Shown: positions 1-57,385 of the stretch, one piece after another | How positions within the stretch are numbered: the stretch's first letter is position 1 | Layout: each line of letters opens with the position of its first letter | DNA from: a virus | DNA: 64,000 nt | Strand: one strand, 5' to 3' | IMG/VR virus record: IMGVR_UViG_3300045988_119718 | Location: 188,611 to 252,610 of that record | Notes under the pieces: model-generated | The model's input: only the letters and a program-made list of their open reading frames with translations | Told to the model about the DNA's origin: nothing | The model's database searches: none | Position numbers and translations under genes: made by a program

Positions 1-643
1 TTACAAAGCCAAGATAGCAATCATCACTTTCATAACCATCTTTCTTGTTTCCTCTAATATTAAGTTTCTTATTAATATCATCAATATTATTATTATGAAG
101 ATTAATCAGGATATCAGTTACAGGAAGCTTATAATAAACATGAGCCATATTAAATACAGTTTTCTGACATTTCTTAATAAACTCTTCTAGTTCTTTAAGA
201 TGTACTTTATCAATAGTACCCTGAATATCTTTAGTAAGATAATAGAGCATAGAATACCAATATCTATCAAAGATAATGATAGTAGGTTTAGAGAATACTT
301 TATTCACTCTCATACTTTCATACCAATCATACATATCAAGCAAAAACAGATTAGATACAAACTTAAGATAATCCATAGATTCTGGATTAATATCTACTTT
401 TGGATGATCTACAAACTTATTAGCTAAATGACGTTTAACAAAATAAGATGCTTCAGATTTATATCTAGGAAAAGATACAATCTTAATCTGTAAATCAACT
501 GAATCAATATATTTCTTAAAATCTTCTTTAAGATAACTAGCAATAGCTTTAGCATTAGTTTCCTTATAAGTAGCATCTAATCCTTCTAATGTAATAAAAA
601 GATTATACTTACTATAATCTGGAAGAATAGGTTGTCTTTTCAT
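1..643 (-). CDS. Hypothetical protein, truncated at the left window edge (C-terminus lies beyond position 1). Start ATG at 643-641.
   Basis: Manual translation of the minus frame from ATG 643 (MKRQPILPDYSKYN...) stays open through position 1. It is absent from the ORF track only because it has no stop inside the window. The plus ORF 200..427 is antisense to it. Confidence 0.6.
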   Translation of the reverse strand, partial: MKRQPILPDYSKYNLFITLEGLDATYKETNAKAIASYLKEDFKKYIDSVDLQIKIVSFPRYKSEASYFVKRHLANKFVDHPKVDINPESMDYLKFVSNLFLLDMYDWYESMRVNKVFSKPTIIIFDRYWYSMLYYLTKDIQGTIDKVHLKELEEFIKKCQKTVFNMAHVYYKLPVTDILINLHNNNIDDINKKLNIRGNKKDGYESDDCYLGFV

Positions 644-1103
644 AATAAACTCTCCTTTGCATAAAAACACTTATGAAAAAAGCCTTTTATTCTAAAGTGA
701 TTATAATTTTATATATCTATTTTCTATAAATAACGCATAGAAGATTTTCTATATGTCCGGAAAATTAACAAAGGTTTTTAAACTGGAATAGTTCAAAAGT
801 GTAATAGACTTCTACAACTTTATAAACTATTCTTTACTGAAGAAGTGTAAAACTTTTATTTTTATTGAAAGGAGAAAACTTTATGAACTCTATTATTGAA
901 AAAAGTATATATGCTATTTTACTATTTCTCTGGAGTATTATTATCTACGATATTATTTCTGGTAATATTATTGAAGAACTTTTATAAACTTTCTTAACTT
1001 CTATAACTTTATTGGAGTTTTTAACTATTAGGTTGATTCTAGGAAAGGATTTGTGCGACTGAAAGGAGCAACAAAACTTTCCGCCATTAAAAATGGGTTC
1101 TAA

Positions 1104-1150
1104 CCCCCGTGAGGGGGTGGTGATTGTAGATTCCTACCCCCTGGAGGTAG
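1104..1150. other. GC-rich paired hairpins: CCCCC-GTGA-GGGGG and CTACC...GGTAG, in an otherwise AT-rich intergenic region.
   Basis: Read directly from the sequence. Local GC is far above the surroundings. Confidence 0.4.
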
Positions 1151-1202
1151 ACTAGCTTTTAAACTTTTACCAAGTTTTATACTTTATAAACTTTTTTAAT
1201 TA

Positions 1203-1228
1203 CCATCTTCGGTATATACCGAAGATGG
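1203..1228. promoter_or_regulatory. 26-bp perfect palindrome CCATCTTCGGTATATACCGAAGATGG (candidate operator, protein-binding site or bidirectional hairpin).
   Basis: The reverse complement is identical to the forward sequence. It lies in the noncoding island upstream of the gene that starts at 643 (minus). Confidence 0.5.
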
Positions 1229-1624
1229 GTTATATTCTTTAAAAACTGTATTTTTAGAAAGAATTCTTAATATATCAATACACTTATATTGAATTAAGGT
1301 TTAGAACTCTTATATTAAAAAATGCAGTGTTATATTTCTATTATATTGGATAGGTTTAGAACAGTATTATTTTGAAAAATACTTATAAACTTGTTTTTAT
1401 TGGTATTTTATTTACACTTCTTAATTGAAGAGGTTTTATAACTCTTTTCAATTAAAAATAAAATTATAAACTCGTAGTTTATAAAGTTTAGAAAAAGTTT
1501 ATAATTATAGTATTTTTTCAATAAATTCTTTTTTGTTATTATTTAATAATTCATGTACATTTTCGTAATGAAATTTTTTTGACTACTTTTATAGTTTGTA
1601 TTCTTTTTTCTTTCCCTCTTTTTG

Positions 1625-1669
1625 GAGGGAAAGGGGGATGGGGGTTCTAGGGGGTAGGGGGGGGAAGGG
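1625..1669 (+). other. G-tract cluster GGAGGG-AAA-GGGGG-AT-GGGGG-TTCTA-GGGGG-TA-GGGGGGGG-AA-GGG (potential G-quadruplex), flanked by C/T-rich tracts.
   Basis: Read directly from the sequence. Compositionally extreme for this AT-rich genome. The track ORF 1596..1778 is merely a translation of it. Confidence 0.5.
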
Positions 1670-2086
1670 AACCTTTTTCTCCCTTTCTTTTTTCAACTTC
1701 ATAAAAATGTATAGATTCTTTTCTATCTTTATAAGTTGTATTTCAATGTATTCTAATAGAAATATGGCTATTCAGTAGTAAAAAATAAAACGATTTTTCT
1801 TATAACTTCAGTGTAAAAACAAGGGTATGAGATTGATTCTCATACCCATATCTTACCTCGTATATTGCTTTCATACAAAAAATGCTATATCTCAAAATAT
1901 AGTATCGTATTCCTATTAAAAATAATAGTCATAGGAGCATGGTTTAAAAATACAACATTACATACTTCCTATAGAAAAATGATTTTTTCATGGATTTTTA
2001 CCTAAATATCAATAATTTCTGTCTAAATGCGAATCATTCGCATTTGTTAGAAAAAGTTTATAATTATAAACTGAAAAAATCGCTAA

Positions 2087-2330
2087 TTTTTTAGTTAAAA
2101 ATTAAAAATCAACTAACATACCCTTTTTTCGCTATTTTCGTATTCCTATTAGTTTTAATGGAAATATGACTTTCTCATACCTTGCTAAAAATTTAGTTAA
2201 AATTGAAAAACCAATTAACATACACTTTTTTAGCCATATTCGTATTCCCATTGGTTCTAATGGAAATACGACTTTTCAATTTTTTCTAAAAATTTAGTTA
2301 AAATTGAAATACCAATTAACATGTGGTCAC
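2087..2330. repeat. Tandem direct repeat of a roughly 104-nt unit, about 2.4 copies. Each unit carries an imperfect inverted repeat CGTATTCC(C/T)ATT(G/A)GTT(C/T)TAATGGAAATA(C/T)G.
   Basis: Copies at about 2087-2190, 2191-2290 and a partial copy at 2291-2330 align with few substitutions. Confidence 0.6.
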
Positions 2331-2415
2331 TACGAAATTATAAACAAAAGTTTATAATTAGTTTATAATTTATTTTTAAAGAAAATAAAAAACATGATAA
2401 AAGACAGCAGAAACC

Positions 2416-2438
2416 CAGTACAGGATAAACCTGTACTG
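2416..2438 (-). terminator. Hairpin CAGTACAGG-ATAAA-CCTGTACTG downstream of the 1448-aa gene stop, with a T-rich tract following on the minus strand.
   Basis: 9-bp stem. It lies about 50 nt past the stop at 2487. Confidence 0.35.
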
Positions 2439-2486
2439 AGTATTCACGCTATCTTCAGTTGGTATACTATAATGTAGGTAAAAATA

Positions 2487-5400
2487 TTAATCATGAAGAT
2501 TATCTACATTAGTAAGGTTATTCCACTTTATACCAAGTTTTTCCTTACACTGTCTAGATAATTCCATAAGTACTTTGTTCAATGAACCACTACTAATGAT
2601 AGAAGCTGTCATACGAGCATTAACCGATGCTGAAGTTAATAAAGCATCTATTGGTTCATCAGGTCTAAAATCAGTATATGGTTCTTTACCTTTAGGCATA
2701 ATATCTTTTACTACACCTTTGATTGCAGTGTTGTAAGTCAGCTTATCACCAACGCCCATCTTATCTTCACACTTGATGTAGAAGCAGAACATTACACCTT
2801 TTTCCAAGTTCTTGAATTTGCCTTCTGGTAATAACTTTTCTGTAGAAGGTACTGATTCATTAATTTCTATATCTGTTACTCCGTTATCTTTAAGATATTT
2901 CTTTTCTTTCTTTATAGAATTTTCATACTTAGAAACTATCTTCTTTAATGATGGAGATAATTCATCTAATTCACAAGTTCTAAATATTTTAATATCTTGA
3001 AGAGTACCAGTAATCTTAGAATGAACTTGAATTCTACCAAAGTCTGTAGCTAATTCTAATTCATCATCAGAAATATTCTTCATTAAAGTATTAGCTTCAT
3101 CATCAGTAAATGCATTCTGGAAGATTATTAATGGAGAACCTTCTTCTATAGGTTTACCTTTTTCAGCTAAGAAGAATACATTAGAACCAGCATCTAAAGA
3201 ACATGTTTTTTCTACACAATAGAATGAAGTAAGAGCATCTGAAATACGTTCATCTATAATAGAAGAATCTTCATATGCTTCATCTGTACACATTATAGCT
3301 ATTTTAGCCATAGTACCAATGTTAAATGCAACGTTTTTATTATCAGCGTTATGCCCTATAGAGGGACTGAACGAAGTTGGGTCATATGCTAAGATATCAT
3401 TATACTTTAAGGTTTGACCTTTCTTTACAAAAGGTTTAAGTTTAACTGTTACATAGAAACCACCATCAGAGTTCTTCTGTGTTTTCTCTCTTAAATCTAC
3501 AGAATGCTTGGATTTATTACCGTCTTTATCTACTTCTTCAAAGATAATAAAGTCATCAGTAATATTTAAAACTTTTCCTTTTACTCCTTTAAATTTATAA
3601 GAAAAAATATTAGAAGTAAAGTAAGGTAATGCCTCATCCATGCCATAAGTAATAAAATTCGGAGATGAAGATTTAACTCTCATAATATGCTTAGTAGTCT
3701 GAATATAGCCCATTGCAGTACGAATTGGGTCATCATGTGTAGTAGCATAAGGAGCCATAGCTTCATAAACAGACATACCATTCAATGTATTCAATTTAGA
3801 TTTATCATTACTTACTTTAAGTATACCTCTGCCATCAGCTATGGAAGAATTAATAGTAGCCTGTCTAGTAATACCTACATTACCAGCAAACCCAGTAGAC
3901 ATAGATAAGATACCTAACATGGAATCGTCATATACACGTTTATCTAATGTATAAGCTCTATCAGCATTCATACCAGATAAGCCTTTGAATGAGTATGTAT
4001 TAATAGCTTCAGCTTCTAATAATGGAGAAGATACCGAAAGATCAGATATACCAGGGTCTTTCATAACTGCATCTATAAGAGCAGACTGTTTAATGGTAAA
4101 CTTAACTCCTCTACCAGTTCTCTTCGATTTATTAGCATATTGACCATATGCATTAGCAATAGCTTGATATAAATAACCAGCTAATATTTCATTAGAACGT
4201 AATCTATTACCAGAGATATCTGCATGCTTATTATAAGAAGTAGAAGCTAATAAGCTACTAGCATAAGCTAATGCTTCTATATAATCGTATGGAATATCGT
4301 ACTTCTTGCAAATATCAATAGTCATAGGATCAAATTCGCAATCATAGAAGTTATCAAAACCATCAGCTTTAATTCTACCACCAAATTCATCTAAGATATC
4401 TAACCACATATTTTTTGTGTTGATATCTTTAATAGAGAATCTAGATAAATCAGTTTTAGCTAATCCTGCCATTAATAATGAATCTTCTGGCTTCTCATCA
4501 TTATAAACTAAATATCCATCACTAAATCTAATTACAGATTCTGTTTCAGTTACCTTAGGTCTAGTATCAGAGAATCTGTATTTAATCTTAGCTTTATCCA
4601 TAGACTTCTGTAAACCTTCAGAAAAAGCCATAAGAATAATAACTGGAATTTTAGTATTCATGATAGATGCTTGAGAGTAAGAAAGTTTATTAGATGGTTT
4701 AGCTAAAGCATAAGTTTCTGCAAATACTTTATCTTTAGAAGCTAAGAATTTACCAATAGTATAAGCTGCATTTTCTTTATTAGAATAGATAGCTTTTTTA
4801 GTTTTACTATCATACCCAATTAAGATATCAGTTTTTTCATTAAATTTTTTATCTACAGGAAGTTTCTTTAATGCATCATAGTCAAAAGCTATATAACTTC
4901 CATCAGCTGTAGTAATTTTAGAGTATAAAGCACCTAAGTCTTTAAATTCTATCGGCATATCATACTTGGAAAGAATAAAAGTATTATCACCGATATAAAC
5001 TTTAACTTTAGAATCTGTGTCTTTTAAGTTCTTTAAAGCTTTAGTAAGTTTAGATACACCTTTAGTAGACTTAGTACCACCAGAAGGATTAACTCTTGAA
5101 ATAAATATTTTATGATAAGAGGTAACTATCTGAGTTGTATCCTCTTCTGTTTTAATTATAGGAAGTAAAAGAATCTGTCCAGCTATAGTTTTAGTATTTC
5201 CTCTTAATTTCATAAATCTATGATTTATAAATTTAGGAATATCTATAGCTATATTTGATCTAGTACCATTAATATCTTCTAATTGTACTCTTAAAGTATA
5301 AATATAATCTTCATTAGTAGATTCATCTGTCATTTCCATACTAGCAACACATAATGGCCTAGACTTATTTCTAAGAGATTTAAATATAGCAATAATATCT

Positions 5401-6833
5401 TCATCTATATCATAGGATTTATTAAAGTCTAAAGCTGTTACATCTTTCCATTCTTCATTAATAGAATCAATGGGAATAGTTTCAGGCTTTAATTCTCTTT
5501 TCTTAGTATAGTAATTCTTTAATACATCTCCTACTTTTTTACCATGGATTACAGTTTTATCAAAATCTTTATCTAACTGCTCCATTCTCTTTTTTCTAGC
5601 TTCAGTTATTTTAGTAATAGGAGGATTATCTAAATCTAATATTACATCCTTGATATAATCTTCATCATTATCTACTGTAATTTCTTTTAATTCTTTTTCT
5701 TGAGATTCTTCTTCTTGTTCTTCCTCGGATTTTTCTTTAGGAGTCTCATCATCGTTGAATCCATCGTCATCTAAATCATCTGGATTAAAAGAAGCTTTAG
5801 CTGAAATAGAATCAGAATTATTTTTCTTTTTAGATTTAGTAGCACCAAATCTATTATCCATAACTATTGAATCAGAAGAATCTGGATTAATCTCAGCATC
5901 ATCTGCATTAGATAAGTCATTCTTTATTAATTTTTTAGTAAAGAATACAAATCTAATTAAATCTTTAATATCGAAATTAGAGAAGTCTACTTTGAAGTAT
6001 GCATTTTTAGAAGCGATAATAAAGTCTATACCACTCCAATAATTAGATATAATCTGTCTTTGTCTAACTAATCTATAAATCATAGAAAATGGGTTTATAG
6101 AATTATTAAAATCAAATATATCGCAGCCTTTAGGAATCCATGATTCTACAGGAATGATACAGGTCTTTCTAGAATAATATTGATTAATTCTAGAATCATC
6201 TAAGTATCTAGTGATAATATGATGAAGTAAGTCTAATCCTCTATCTCTTTGATAAACTTTATTATTTTTCAAGAATATATTTATATAATGGGATAAATCT
6301 ACGATAAGATTCTTTCTATTATATTGCTTTAGATTAACAAAAGTATTTCTAATAAATGGAACTTTAGCTTTAACTTTACTATAGATTTCAAATATTTCTT
6401 TTTGGTTTTTTATTCTTTCATTATAAAGAAGATTTCTAAATATACTTGGATAGTTTTGATTCATTCTAAAATCTTCATTTAATATTTCATCTACTTTATC
6501 AGGAAAGAATACTCTACTATCATCTAAGTCATAATATAAATCATTATTATCACCATCAAATTTAGACTCTAACATAGTCTTCATAAACGGTTCATTTATA
6601 GTAGAAGCTTCATTAGTGAAAAATGTGAAATCCTTTTCTGTATAATATGAAATAAAAGTATTTCTATTAACAAGAAACTTATTATTATTTAAAAAGCTAA
6701 TAGTATCATCAATATCCTTGGTTAATATAAACAAAGCACTATTATGATAAATATCATTTTGCGTATATGCTGGGTAAAATAGTTTTGTTTTCATTAACCT
6801 TAAAGGAATGAGTTTTTCTATCGTATATGGCAT
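2487..6833 (-). CDS. Large (1448 aa) multisubunit-RNA-polymerase beta-prime-like protein (C-terminal module: bridge-helix and trigger-loop-like segments). Highly divergent, with a long acidic low-complexity insert.
   Basis: The segment STSYNKHADISGNRLRSNEILAGYLYQAIANA resembles the beta-prime bridge helix (..[31 protein letters not shown]). The segment GILSMSTGFAGNVGITRQATINSS resembles beta-prime region G ([24 protein letters not shown]). Recognised by eye only. Confidence 0.4.
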   Translation of the reverse strand: MPYTIEKLIPLRLMKTKLFYPAYTQNDIYHNSALFILTKDIDDTISFLNNNKFLVNRNTFISYYTEKDFTFFTNEASTINEPFMKTMLESKFDGDNNDLYYDLDDSRVFFPDKVDEILNEDFRMNQNYPSIFRNLLYNERIKNQKEIFEIYSKVKAKVPFIRNTFVNLKQYNRKNLIVDLSHYINIFLKNNKVYQRDRGLDLLHHIITRYLDDSRINQYYSRKTCIIPVESWIPKGCDIFDFNNSINPFSMIYRLVRQRQIISNYWSGIDFIIASKNAYFKVDFSNFDIKDLIRFVFFTKKLIKNDLSNADDAEINPDSSDSIVMDNRFGATKSKKKNNSDSISAKASFNPDDLDDDGFNDDETPKEKSEEEQEEESQEKELKEITVDNDEDYIKDVILDLDNPPITKITEARKKRMEQLDKDFDKTVIHGKKVGDVLKNYYTKKRELKPETIPIDSINEEWKDVTALDFNKSYDIDEDIIAIFKSLRNKSRPLCVASMEMTDESTNEDYIYTLRVQLEDINGTRSNIAIDIPKFINHRFMKLRGNTKTIAGQILLLPIIKTEEDTTQIVTSYHKIFISRVNPSGGTKSTKGVSKLTKALKNLKDTDSKVKVYIGDNTFILSKYDMPIEFKDLGALYSKITTADGSYIAFDYDALKKLPVDKKFNEKTDILIGYDSKTKKAIYSNKENAAYTIGKFLASKDKVFAETYALAKPSNKLSYSQASIMNTKIPVIILMAFSEGLQKSMDKAKIKYRFSDTRPKVTETESVIRFSDGYLVYNDEKPEDSLLMAGLAKTDLSRFSIKDINTKNMWLDILDEFGGRIKADGFDNFYDCEFDPMTIDICKKYDIPYDYIEALAYASSLLASTSYNKHADISGNRLRSNEILAGYLYQAIANAYGQYANKSKRTGRGVKFTIKQSALIDAVMKDPGISDLSVSSPLLEAEAINTYSFKGLSGMNADRAYTLDKRVYDDSMLGILSMSTGFAGNVGITRQATINSSIADGRGILKVSNDKSKLNTLNGMSVYEAMAPYATTHDDPIRTAMGYIQTTKHIMRVKSSSPNFITYGMDEALPYFTSNIFSYKFKGVKGKVLNITDDFIIFEEVDKDGNKSKHSVDLREKTQKNSDGGFYVTVKLKPFVKKGQTLKYNDILAYDPTSFSPSIGHNADNKNVAFNIGTMAKIAIMCTDEAYEDSSIIDERISDALTSFYCVEKTCSLDAGSNVFFLAEKGKPIEEGSPLIIFQNAFTDDEANTLMKNISDDELELATDFGRIQVHSKITGTLQDIKIFRTCELDELSPSLKKIVSKYENSIKKEKKYLKDNGVTDIEINESVPSTEKLLPEGKFKNLEKGVMFCFYIKCEDKMGVGDKLTYNTAIKGVVKDIMPKGKEPYTDFRPDEPIDALLTSASVNARMTASIISSGSLNKVLMELSRQCKEKLGIKWNNLTNVDNLHD

Positions 6834-35944: not shown

Positions 35945-36734
35945 ATGCCGCAAACTTTAAAAGGAACTATATGGGGGGGGGGTAACCTTTAGTGCCTCTC
36001 CTGCTAAGAAGAAAGGGCAAATCTTTGTAGCTAAAGGTAGTGCTCCGTGGTATAATACTGAAGAAACATGGTATGATGTCGATGGAGTTACTAATGTGGA
36101 TGAATCTGTACCTGGTCAAGCTACAGTTACATGCGATGGTAAAGTATTTAACATGAATAATATGTTTTATGGTTGTTCTGAACTTACTTCAATAGATTTA
36201 TCCACCTTTGATACTTCTAAAGTAAACACGATGAGTGGTATGTTTGAAAACTGCAATAGTCTTGTTTCAGTGGACTTATCTAACCTTAATACCTTCAATG
36301 TACGTAGTATGATTAATATGTTTTATGGATGTAGCTCTCTTATTTCATTAGATTTATCTAGCTTTAATACTTCTAAAATAACAAATATGCGTAATATGTT
36401 CTATTTCTGTAGCTCTCTTACTACATTAGACTTATCTAGTTTTGATACTTCTAATGTATATAATATGTACATGACGTTTAGAGGATGCTCTGGCATTGGC
36501 ACAATAGATTTATCTAATTGGGACACTTCTAAAGTAACTAATATGAATTCTATGTTCTGTAATTGTAATAATCTTACTACTATCAAAGGTGTAATTGATA
36601 TGAAGTCTTGTACTGAATACGCACAGATGTTTAAGGGATGCACTAGTCTTAAAAATGTTAATATTAAGAATCCACCTGCGGACTTTGAAAGTATGAGTGG
36701 TTTATCCTCCTCACAATACACTATAGTTAGTTAG
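35945..36734 (+). CDS. DUF285/BspA-like 26-residue surface-repeat (LRR-like) protein, a candidate receptor-binding or adhesin protein. The SD/ATG start at 35945 is out of frame with the body (36096..36734 in the track) across the G10 tract at 35973-35982.
   Basis: Repeats FxxCxxLxxIDLSxFDTSKVTNMxxMF recur about five times. SD GAGGAGGG precedes ATG 35945. The frame-0 body is open from 35961 with no start codon before GTG 36096 (which has no SD). Confidence 0.5.
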
Positions 36735-48774: not shown

Positions 48775-48945
48775 TTATACTTCGTTCCGAAGTTCATTCA
48801 GTGTCTTTCCACTTTGCTTAAGTAGAAGACTGAATGCGTACAGCTTGGACTCTTCGTCATTAGACTTACTACAATCTTTCATGATGCGACTATAGTAGTC
48901 TAAGAGTTTAAATCCGAACTCTTTTTTGCTTTCATTGATAACCAT
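48775..48945 (-). CDS. Small paralog A (56 aa): MVINESKKEFGFKLLDYYSRIMKDCSKSNDEESKLYAFSLLLKQSGKTLNELRNEV.
   Basis: Manual translation. The leader TATAACCTAGGAGGTGATTAGT-ATG is identical in all three paralogs. Confidence 0.5.
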   Translation of the reverse strand: MVINESKKEFGFKLLDYYSRIMKDCSKSNDEESKLYAFSLLLKQSGKTLNELRNEV

Positions 48946-49104
48946 ACTAATCACCTCCTAGGTTATAACGGCTTATATATGCTATATTTGGAGTATAGCA
49001 TATATAAGCAAAAGCATAATATATTTTAACCATACCCAATATTGGGTATGGTTAAAATCAATGTGGTAATTAAGAATAATTATAGGAATAACTATTAAAT
49101 AAAC

Positions 49105-49278
49105 CTAGGGTTGATTTAATACTATATCTTCTATAATTCCTTTATATCTGGGTATTATCTGATCAATTACCCATTGTTTAGATTCTCTATCACTTGAATC
49201 TTTTAACCCTATCATAATAGAATTATAGTAATCAAGCAATTTCAAACCAAACTCTTCTTTTGTTTCATTGATAACCAT
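49105..49278 (-). CDS. Small paralog B (57 aa): MVINETKEEFGLKLLDYYNSIMIGLKDSSDRESKQ...
   Basis: Manual translation with the same leader and SD. Confidence 0.5.
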   Translation of the reverse strand: MVINETKEEFGLKLLDYYNSIMIGLKDSSDRESKQWVIDQIIPRYKGIIEDIVLNQP

Positions 49279-49424
49279 ATAGTATCACCTCCTAGGTTAT
49301 AACAGGGTATGTAGCTAATATTTTAGGTATATTAGCTACATACCTAAAACTATTATACTAATTTCTATACCAGATATCTGGTATAGAAATTAATAACTAA
49401 AAGAACTAGTAAGTAAATCTAGGA

Positions 49425-49598
49425 TTACTTAGCAGAACAACATATATCATCAAGTATGTTTTTACTCTGTTTAAGTAATATGCTAAAAGCATAGTGCTTA
49501 GTTTTTTCATCCTTAGAATCATTATATTCGGTCATTAACTTTGTATAATGATTAAGAAGTTTCAAACCAAACTCCTCTTTAGTTTCATTGATAACCAT
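49425..49598 (-). CDS. Small paralog C (57 aa): MVINETKEEFGLKLLNHYTKLMTEYNDSKDEKTKHYAFSILLKQSKNILDDICCSAK.
   Basis: Track ORF 49425..49607 trimmed to ATG 49598 behind the SD AGGAGGTGA. Confidence 0.5.
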   Translation of the reverse strand: MVINETKEEFGLKLLNHYTKLMTEYNDSKDEKTKHYAFSILLKQSKNILDDICCSAK

Positions 49599-49794
49599 AC
49601 TAATCACCTCCTAGGTTATACAACGGCTTATAGTTAATATATTCCTAGTATATTAACTATAAGCAAAATGAAATTTATTTTAACTCTATCCAATATTGGA
49701 TAGAGTTAAATACTGTTTATCATAAATATGATATATAATCGAAAAAGAAAATAAATATTATCCCAGCCTATTATTAGGCTGGGATAATACCTTG

Positions 49795-50052
49795 TTATTT
49801 TTTAAAGGTATTGTATAAAGTTTTACACCATGCTCCAATACCTAATAATTCTGACATAGAAAGGAGCCATAAAAATTCTTTCCAACTATTCACGCAATAA
49901 TAAGAGCCATCATAAACGAATGTGATAGCTTTATAATACATGAAACCATAAATAGCTATTGCAGCTAGCAATACAGCTAAAGAACCAATGAGGGCATTCC
50001 TATCTTTATTAAAAAGTGCAGCTACAATTACGAATAAAGAAAGTAAAATCAT
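49795..50052 (-). CDS. Small membrane protein, 2 TM, 85 aa (holin-like candidate).
   Basis: Hydrophobic helices. Paired with a similar neighbour. Confidence 0.45.
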   Translation of the reverse strand: MILLSLFVIVAALFNKDRNALIGSLAVLLAAIAIYGFMYYKAITFVYDGSYYCVNSWKEFLWLLSMSELLGIGAWCKTLYNTFKK

Positions 50053-57043: not shown

Positions 57044-57118
57044 GGTCCTATAGTTCAACGGTTAGAACGCATGCCTTATAAGCGTGTCATGAAGTTTCGA
57101 CTACTTCTAGGACCACCA
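57044..57118 (+). tRNA. tRNA-Ile (anticodon UAU) with encoded CCA.
   Basis: Manual cloverleaf: acceptor GGTCCTA/TAGGACC, anticodon arm CATGC-CTTATAA-GCGTG, T-loop TTCGACT. Confidence 0.6.
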
Positions 57119-57138
57119 TTTTATTATATACTTACAAC

Positions 57139-57226
57139 GGATGTATGGCCGAGTGGTTTAAGGCACCAGTCTTGAAAACTGGCATAGAGAAATCTATCTG
57201 GGGTTCAAATCCCTATGCATCCGCCA
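57139..57226 (+). tRNA. tRNA-Ser (anticodon UGA), long variable arm, with CCA.
   Basis: Acceptor GGATGTA/TGCATCC, anticodon arm CCAGT-CTTGAAA-ACTGG, discriminator G. Confidence 0.65.
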
Positions 57227-57233
57227 TTTTTAT

Positions 57234-57309
57234 TCCTGAATAGCTCAGTCGGTAGAGCGTGTGACTGTTAATCACAATGTCGTAGGTTCGATCCCTACTT
57301 CAGGAGCCA
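57234..57309 (+). tRNA. tRNA-Asn (anticodon GUU) with CCA.
   Basis: Acceptor TCCTGAA/TTCAGGA, D-arm AGCTCAGTCGGTAGAGC, anticodon loop CTGTTAA, T-loop TTCGATC. Confidence 0.7.
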
Positions 57310-57310
57310 T

Positions 57311-57385
57311 CGGGGAATAGTACAAAGGTCAGTATGCTTGGCTTTGACCCAAGAGATTTGAGTTCGATTCTCAATTCCCCTGCCA
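57311..57385 (+). tRNA. tRNA-Gln (anticodon UUG) with CCA. There is a 1-72 mismatch.
   Basis: Anticodon arm CTTGG-CTTTGAC-CCAAG, T-arm TTGAG-TTCGATT-CTCAA, discriminator G. Confidence 0.55.

Follow-up and report, generated by a model that had tools for sequence, protein, structure and literature searches.

A nearly gene-free island beside the RNA polymerase gene of a PBS1/AR9-like jumbo phage, possibly a reduced accessory-gene slot

Two neighbouring leftward genes of a giant phage are separated by a long stretch of DNA with almost no coding sequence, and the question raised by this locus is what such a stretch represents. The locus lies in a 64,000-nt segment of the IMG/VR virus record IMGVR_UViG_3300045988_119718 (positions 188,611 to 252,610 of the record; hereafter the window). 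It occupies positions 644–2486 of the window, between a gene for a weak thymidylate-kinase relative (TMK-like), which starts at 643, and an RNA polymerase beta-like (RNAP-beta-like) gene at 2487–6833, both on the minus strand. Judged by the matches of its RNAP-beta-like protein and by its use of AR9-type promoters, the source is a PBS1/AR9-like jumbo phage, a group in which origins, packaging signals and noncoding RNAs are essentially unmapped. The initial annotation offered a replication origin, a packaging site or a promoter cluster as explanations of the island. Among these, only the promoter or regulatory option has direct support in the sequence, namely an invariant late-type promoter, T-tailed hairpins and a micro-gene. 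We favour a reading that seems to us evenly poised between right and wrong: the island might be a hyperplastic accessory-gene slot in a locally much reduced form, transcribed rightward in short units with insulating terminators. The features of the island are collected in Table 1.

A gene-free gap and its counterparts in relatives

The long gap reported between the two leftward genes exists. It is also empty in a separate gene call, made on a 252.7-kb contig of the same phage (L017; related lineages and contigs bear labels of the same kind), and no supported open reading frame (ORF) of at least 60 amino acids lies between the TMK-like and RNAP-beta-like genes. Genes hidden by stop-codon reassignment were considered and rejected, as TGA or TAG recoding opens no long ORF. 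The island holds no transfer RNA (tRNA) or transfer-messenger RNA, and the covariance models of Rfam 15 give no match in it at the gathering threshold (best sub-threshold E-value, 0.061); Rfam families are likewise absent from the islands of relatives.

The description of the island as noncoding is correct in that it is nearly free of genes, but it misses a conserved micro-gene of 34 codons. The micro-gene is kept in the window phage and in five relative lineages (L032, L026, L001/L019, L018 and L027), among which its codons display 4–5 synonymous and 4–5 non-synonymous changes, with an in-frame length change in L027. A homologue is found in the more distant L002 group, and the micro-gene is absent from L022. 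Conservation as a coding sequence marks this ORF as a genuine gene, one overlooked by annotation pipelines; a tblastn search with the peptide against isolated phages gave no match. Evidence for coding is weak in two other small reading frames of the plus strand. One, at 1053–1103, has 16 codons and a GTG start, lies within the GC-hairpin module described below, and is longer, with 33 codons, in L001 and L019. The other, a doubtful ORF of 28–30 codons at 1827–1919, begins inside the hairpin at 1823–1847, just 3' of a late-promoter-like AACA-N6-TG.

Relatives were gathered through the two flanking proteins, RNAP-beta-like and TMK-like, and through a conserved 27-mer. The 252.7-kb ENA contig k119_143398 and IMG/VR 3300045988_127829 represent complete genomes of the lineage. 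Eight lineages with TMK-like proteins 66–99% identical all keep a gene-free gap, of 1.26–2.2 kb. Relatives with 74%, 60% and 56% RNAP-beta identity carry opposite-strand ORFs at the same place: the L002 group has a 289-amino-acid ORF and, after it, small membrane ORFs, and the L008 group a cluster of five ORFs. In PBS1 this position is occupied by a homing endonuclease, next to which come about 14 small genes on the opposite strand. Conservation in relatives, whose absence was to count against the initial interpretation, is mixed: it extends to the gap and several of its modules where the TMK-like proteins are at least 66% identical, whereas more distant relatives have genes instead. No pseudogene traces of the relatives' ORFs were detected in the island by tblastn.

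Conservation is high through the RNAP-beta-like gene and its terminator, and drops to about 50% identity 90 nt past the stop codon. This collapse implies that the island and the TMK-like gene form a separate mosaic block with a boundary at about 2397. The segment 2400–2486 is part of the conserved RNAP block and lies outside the variable island. A 75-nt element behind the RNAP-beta stop codon was considered as an ultra-conserved cis site and dismissed, since its conservation does not exceed that of the coding DNA beside it.

From this anatomy we infer a direction and timing of transcription, an insulating role of the terminators and the binding of a protein to a short repeated box. The slot, as it would exist in PBS1/AR9-like jumbo phages, would lie just downstream of the RNAP-beta gene and be transcribed opposite to its neighbours. 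In the window phage a single micro-gene for a membrane-type peptide would be left in it, and the remainder would consist of short rightward transcription units and their punctuation. Stacked T-tailed hairpins in the 102-nt repeats would block antisense transcripts from entering the convergent RNAP-beta gene. The conserved late-type promoter would fire into a cluster of hairpins and G-runs, producing a G-rich RNA some 125 nt long. The lineage-specific box of 9–12 bp would mark the borders of modules and hold a constant place some 90 nt ahead of the late-type promoter. The signals of rightward direction are the micro-gene and the late-type promoter, both on the plus strand, the GNRA-type hairpin loops of the same strand, and the terminator-like hairpins (GC-containing stem followed by a T-run), of which the island has eight against 0.6 expected, seven of them on the plus strand.

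Boxes, hairpins and the conserved core

The motif TTTATAA(A/C)(T/C)T, initially described as recurring through the island, is not enriched: the window contains 9 copies against 8.6 expected, four of the nine fall in the island, and position 1017 holds no match. Strong enrichment is seen for a related 9-mer, AGTTTATAA, which occurs 14 times in the window, a count reached in none of 100 shuffles, and 11 of the 14 copies lie within the island between 820 and 2368. The boxes are dispersed in both orientations at spacings from 11 to 560 bp; a tandem, phased arrangement of the iteron kind (direct repeats of about 17–22 bp) was not found. Left-hand boxes are conserved in L001, L019, L026, L018 and L027 and are mostly directed toward the TMK-like gene. 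In L001 the right-hand boxes 2055 and 2064 are mutated, and 2349 and 2360 are deleted. In seven of eight sequences one box precedes the late-type promoter by 87–94 nt, despite the unconserved DNA in between. A 293-bp duplication in L001 is bounded by boxes, and its copies are 100% identical, which indicates a recent event. The GC-hairpin module lies between boxes 982 and 1184 and is missing at that place in L018 and L027. Since the duplications and deletions that distinguish relatives start and end at the box, it may also serve as a recombination substrate that keeps the region plastic, and what emerges is a locus-restricted array of boxes at recombination joints. The box was also tried as a promoter. 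It fits neither the early nor the late consensus of this phage (derived from the window and from AR9), and as a host sigma-70 promoter it fares no better, with 14 promoter-like matches against 14 in shuffles.

The individual structures that had been noticed in the island are largely confirmed. The GC-rich hairpins are found at 1104–1117 and 1134–1150. The first stem of their module covaries, reading GGAGAG/CTCTCC in L026, and the loops are of GNRA type on the plus strand in four lineages; L018 and L027 have GNRA-capped hairpins elsewhere in their islands. The perfect 26-bp palindrome is present (−18.5 kcal/mol, z-score −5.4), and its arms are swapped for other perfect palindromes in L018 (CCTCTTCCAGCATATGCTGGAAGAGG) and L027. 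In the window, most genes of this phage are terminated by a perfect palindrome centred on TATA or ATAT, so this one appears to be an ordinary terminator. The stem-loop at 1823–1847 is likewise present (z-score −6.4) and overlaps the late-promoter-like AACA-N6-TG, located at 1818–1829 on the plus strand. The tandem repeats exist, with a period of 102 rather than 104 nt, and their 2.3 copies are 85% identical. Hairpins related to those of the repeats occur at 1738–1769 and 1905–1936. Across these hairpins 94% of cells are paired and one pair is seen as AU, GC or GU; point covariation is sparse, and the strand indicated by G-U versus A-C pairs is ambiguous. The leader hairpin of the divergent control region (−7.3 kcal/mol) has covarying arms, ATAGAA/TTCTAT in the window against ATATCGA/TCGATAT in L022. 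A separate 13-bp hairpin, hairpin B, is absent from the window and occurs in the islands of L018 (5095–5125), L022 (5523–5553) and L027 (1725–1755), with clear compensatory changes (CTCCGAC/GTCGGAG, CCCCGAG/CTCGGGG and CTTCGAC/GTCGAAG).

The most consistently conserved part of the island consists of the box at about −90, the AT-rich stretch, the late-type promoter and a cluster of hairpins and G-runs ending in a terminator. The AT-rich DNA from 1222 to 1627 has 17% GC, against about 28% for the window, and ranks in the lowest 1% of the window when measured over 300 bp; the window has three further regions that are just as AT-rich. An alignment of the lineages reveals no convincing covariation in the block at 1262–1365. 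The promoter-like element at 1557–1568 occurs once in the window and is invariant across all gene-free-gap relatives, with AACA in L001 and L022. It shares the spacing and the TA start of the AR9 late promoters, which are used by the non-virion RNA polymerase (AACA-N6-TA/G; PMC5312081, PMC9209446), and differs from them in that the window copy reads TACA and no ORF follows it. The element is thus a predicted late-type promoter, conserved without a gene behind it.

The G-quadruplex-like tract pointed out initially corresponds to a G-rich segment at 1619–1677, which contains a canonical G-quadruplex (G4) motif at 1627–1654 on the plus strand, defined as four runs of at least three G spaced 1–7 nt apart. 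As a sequence motif, with folding predicted, it is the only one in the window. The motif recurs in all gene-free-gap lineages except L022 and in the L002 group, always inside the island and always as the sole one in the fetched locus. Wherever the gap is gene-free, the G-runs lie on the promoter (non-template) strand. The sequence between promoter and G-runs is unconserved across lineages, the hairpin at 1610–1633 is retained with replaced sequence in L018 and L022, and the G-rich unit folds with modest z-scores (−1.5 to −4.4). The late-type promoter of L022 is followed after 7 nt by a strong terminator.

GC-rich segments also occur near the TMK-like gene in relatives that carry genes at this place. 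The relatives with 74% RNAP-beta identity have one of about 250 nt (L002, 12508–12828) with a G4 motif at its end (GGGGGAGGGGGTTTTTAGGGGGAGGGGGG); it is located roughly 140 nt 5' of the TMK-like gene, on the TMK-sense strand, and Rfam gives no match to it. In those with 60% identity, a nearly invariant element of about 170 nt adjoins the TMK-like gene (L008, 12827–13111; also L006, L007, L009, L011, L014 and L015). Rfam has no match to this element, whose long-range stems measure 13–15 bp and whose consensus fold is at about −74 kcal/mol; it counts as a candidate for a structured RNA or a cruciform.

Readings of the island

The slot reading draws on a known precedent. Hyperplastic regions of T4-like phages are shuffled by promoter-early stem-loop (PeSL) cassettes (PMC2839356, PMC4122927). 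The island resembles such regions as a variable block between conserved core blocks, with unrelated small ORFs in relatives, and as a place where a short repeated regulatory-looking motif is accompanied by stem-loops and where indels and duplications begin and end at the repeats. It differs from T4-type regions, which are packed with small genes, in being almost free of ORFs. Several observations weigh against the slot reading. The box is neither known promoter type of this phage, and only copy 1184 directly adjoins a stem-loop, which leaves the analogy to cassettes incomplete. The gene-free state persists in eight lineages, the window and L001 agree at 84% of aligned island positions but at 71% of the four-fold sites in the neighbouring gene, and the G-runs are retained; together these suggest that selection acts on the noncoding sequence as such. 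Although the sequence turns over, the G-run cluster persists, which would not be expected of a mere remnant.

The origin reading draws on resemblance: on the repeated box, the 17%-GC stretch and the promoter facing the G-runs. In its explicit form, which we regard as unlikely, a phage factor would bind boxes located in the 17%-GC stretch, the promoter at 1557 would transcribe into the G-runs, and an RNA–DNA hybrid or G-quadruplex with the C-rich template would yield the primer. Origins primed by processed G-rich transcripts in persistent hybrids are known from ColE1 (RNA II), mitochondria (conserved sequence block II) and T4 (oriF and oriG). The island shares with them a promoter co-oriented with non-template G-runs and an AT-rich neighbour, and the adjoining operon encodes RNase H and ThyX-like proteins. 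The order of box, AT-rich stretch, promoter and G-runs is collinear in all gene-free-gap lineages, and the uniqueness of the G4 motif and the extreme composition of the AT-rich stretch speak for the same reading. The island differs from these origins in the late class of its promoter and in the terminator hairpin that follows at once, most closely in L022. The G4 motif is lacking in the relatives with 60% and 56% RNAP-beta identity. Iteron origins of the lambda ori, P1 and pSC101 type likewise have a short sequence repeated at one locus next to AT-rich DNA, and the AT-rich unwinding stretch that they require has its counterpart at 1222–1627. Unlike theirs, the repeats of the island are 9–12 bp long and irregularly placed over 1.5 kb in both orientations. 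They neither overlap nor adjoin an initiator gene, and scans of the flanking genes for protein families found no adjacent initiator, helicase or primase. Cumulative GC skew, the measure proposed for locating an origin, follows gene orientation. The coding-strand skew at third codon positions is alike for plus- and minus-strand genes on both sides of the island and carries no replication signal, so skew cannot locate an origin here. The narrower proposal that the core at 1460–1700 is a transcription-primed origin or a recombination-initiation site, acting through an RNA–DNA hybrid or G-quadruplex, is rather improbable; if it is true, PBS1/AR9-like phages would have their first mapped type of origin.

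Three other explanations were weighed. The core and its surroundings might encode a cluster of trans-acting small RNAs, a G-rich RNA (about 1567–1695) together with hairpin RNAs that could, for example, sequester C-rich regulatory RNAs or proteins. Such a cluster would agree with an ORF-less unit framed by a conserved promoter and terminator, with hairpins retained through replaced or covarying arms, and with GNRA loops confined to one strand. A sub-threshold Rfam match to the G-track small RNA RsaOG (21.7 bits, E-value 1.9) is a lead only. The absence of any Rfam family at threshold, the modest fold z-scores, the unconserved sequence between promoter and G-runs and the sparse point covariation make the RNA cluster a rather improbable answer. 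That the island is a functionless, decaying remnant of lost accessory genes, its hairpins and repeats being leftovers and recent duplications, would fit the genes that fill the slot in other relatives, the recent, 100% identical duplications of L001 and the unconserved right-hand boxes. This is quite improbable, given that pseudogene traces are lacking, that the micro-gene, promoter, G-runs and box at about −90 are retained across lineages, and that conservation of the island exceeds that of four-fold sites in the neighbouring gene. A packaging (pac) site or physical genome end, with a terminase recognising the boxes or the G-tract, seems extremely unlikely. Three independent metagenome contigs do end at the G-tract, two from the left (L026 and L021, about 10–20 nt before window position 1614) and one of 227 kb from the right (L034, which starts inside the G8 run at about 1657), but four other assemblies (the L017, L001, L019 and L022 contigs) read straight through it. 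Short reads are known to drop out at G-rich tracts of AT-rich genomes, and the contig breaks are probably such dropout at the G-runs, a simpler explanation than real DNA ends; the single G4 motif of the region is thus a place where short-read assemblies break. No terminase family was found among the 29 flanking and window proteins scanned; a pac site would be expected in or next to the small terminase gene. A core that turned out to be an origin or to encode a regulatory RNA would offer a useful handle for engineering such phages; should it be neither, the island would be a clear example of accessory-slot decay and reshuffling in giant phages.

Feature coordinates, flanking genes and further observations

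Table 1. Features of the island and its borders, in window coordinates
Feature	Position	Strand	Remarks
Divergent control region between leftward TMK-like gene and rightward micro-gene	644–882		Leader hairpin 732–757; first box 820–828
Array of 11 boxes AGTTTATAA, near-palindrome of AGTTTATAAACT type	820–2368	both	9–12-bp core
Minus-strand boxes	820, 982, 1184, 1383, 1464, 2064	−	
Plus-strand boxes	1476, 1496, 2055, 2349, 2360	+	
Micro-gene, 34-amino-acid hydrophobic peptide MNSIIEKSIYAILLFLWSIIIYDIISGNIIEELL	883–987	+	AAAGGAG ribosome-binding site upstream
GC-rich hairpin module 3' of the micro-gene	1040–1150	+	Stem GGAAAG/CTTTCC; GTGA-capped CCCCC/GGGGG hairpin; competing GGGGGTGG/CCTACCCCC pairing
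Perfect 26-bp palindrome, likely terminator of the micro-gene transcript	1203–1228	+	
AT-rich block conserved in all lineages (CAATACACTTRTATTG ... TATTTCTATTATATTGGATAGGTTTAGAACA)	1262–1365		From alignment
Most AT-rich stretch of the island	1366–1556		Box cluster 1383, 1464, 1476, 1496
AR9-type late promoter-like element ACATTTTCGTAA / ACATTTTYGTAA	1557–1568	+	Predicted start about 1567
Pyrimidine/purine hairpin, G-run cluster and terminator hairpin with T-run	1610–1695	+	Hairpin 1610–1633; G-runs 1627–1669; terminator 1656–1695
Hairpin with 10-bp stem	1823–1847		Terminator-like on minus strand (TTGTTTTT tail); closest lineages only
102-nt tandem repeat, 2.3 copies	2090–2322	+	Each full copy: 12-bp hairpin (2138–2169, 2240–2271), then T-rich tail
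3' untranslated end and long terminator hairpin of RNAP-beta-like gene	2400–2486	−	Hairpin 2400–2456; −33.5 kcal/mol, z-score −6.2

The right-hand neighbour of the island encodes a protein of 1448 amino acids with an RNA polymerase Rpb2 domain, which matches at about 30% identity the beta-like subunits of Bacillus PBS1, of Yersinia phiR1-37 and of Staphylococcus, Listeria and Fusobacterium jumbo phages. The left-hand neighbour is the first gene of an operon with the ThyX-like and RNase H genes. The remaining genes of the window encode virion proteins, a head protease, a RusA-like resolvase, a second RNAP subunit and four tRNAs, the last clustered at 57044–57385 (Ile-TAT, Ser-TGA, Asn-GTT and Gln-TTG). 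A nucleotide search against isolated phages and a host search through bacterial genomes gave no match. The closest cultured relatives of the source phage have uracil DNA. A ThyX-type thymidylate-synthase domain (L017, 17511–18866, left of the window) occurs together with the divergent TMK-like protein (window 2–643), and in view of this pair the base composition of the phage's DNA may be worth a check.

Early and late promoters were recognised by the consensus sequences published for AR9 (PMC5312081). The early consensus TATATTAT-N6-G occurs seven times in the window, six times between genes, and the late consensus AACA-N6-T[A/G] lies 7–35 nt upstream of nine start codons, that of the RNAP-beta-like gene included. 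A sequence with one mismatch to the early consensus, TATACTAT-N6-G at 2463–2477 on the plus strand, is conserved among relatives and directed antisense into the RNAP-beta-like gene at its 3' end.

The window also holds a G10 homopolymer at 35973–35982, in a 213-bp gap before the gene at 36096, and a second gene-poor, hairpin-dense island at 48900–49800. The latter consists of three modules of about 320 bp, each with a hairpin (48971, 49306 and 49626; 16-bp stems) followed by a palindrome with a stem of 12–14 bp, and contains an AR9-type early promoter at 49009–49023 on the minus strand. By its sequence, this second island looks more like an array of terminator–promoter cassettes than the island at 644–2486 does.

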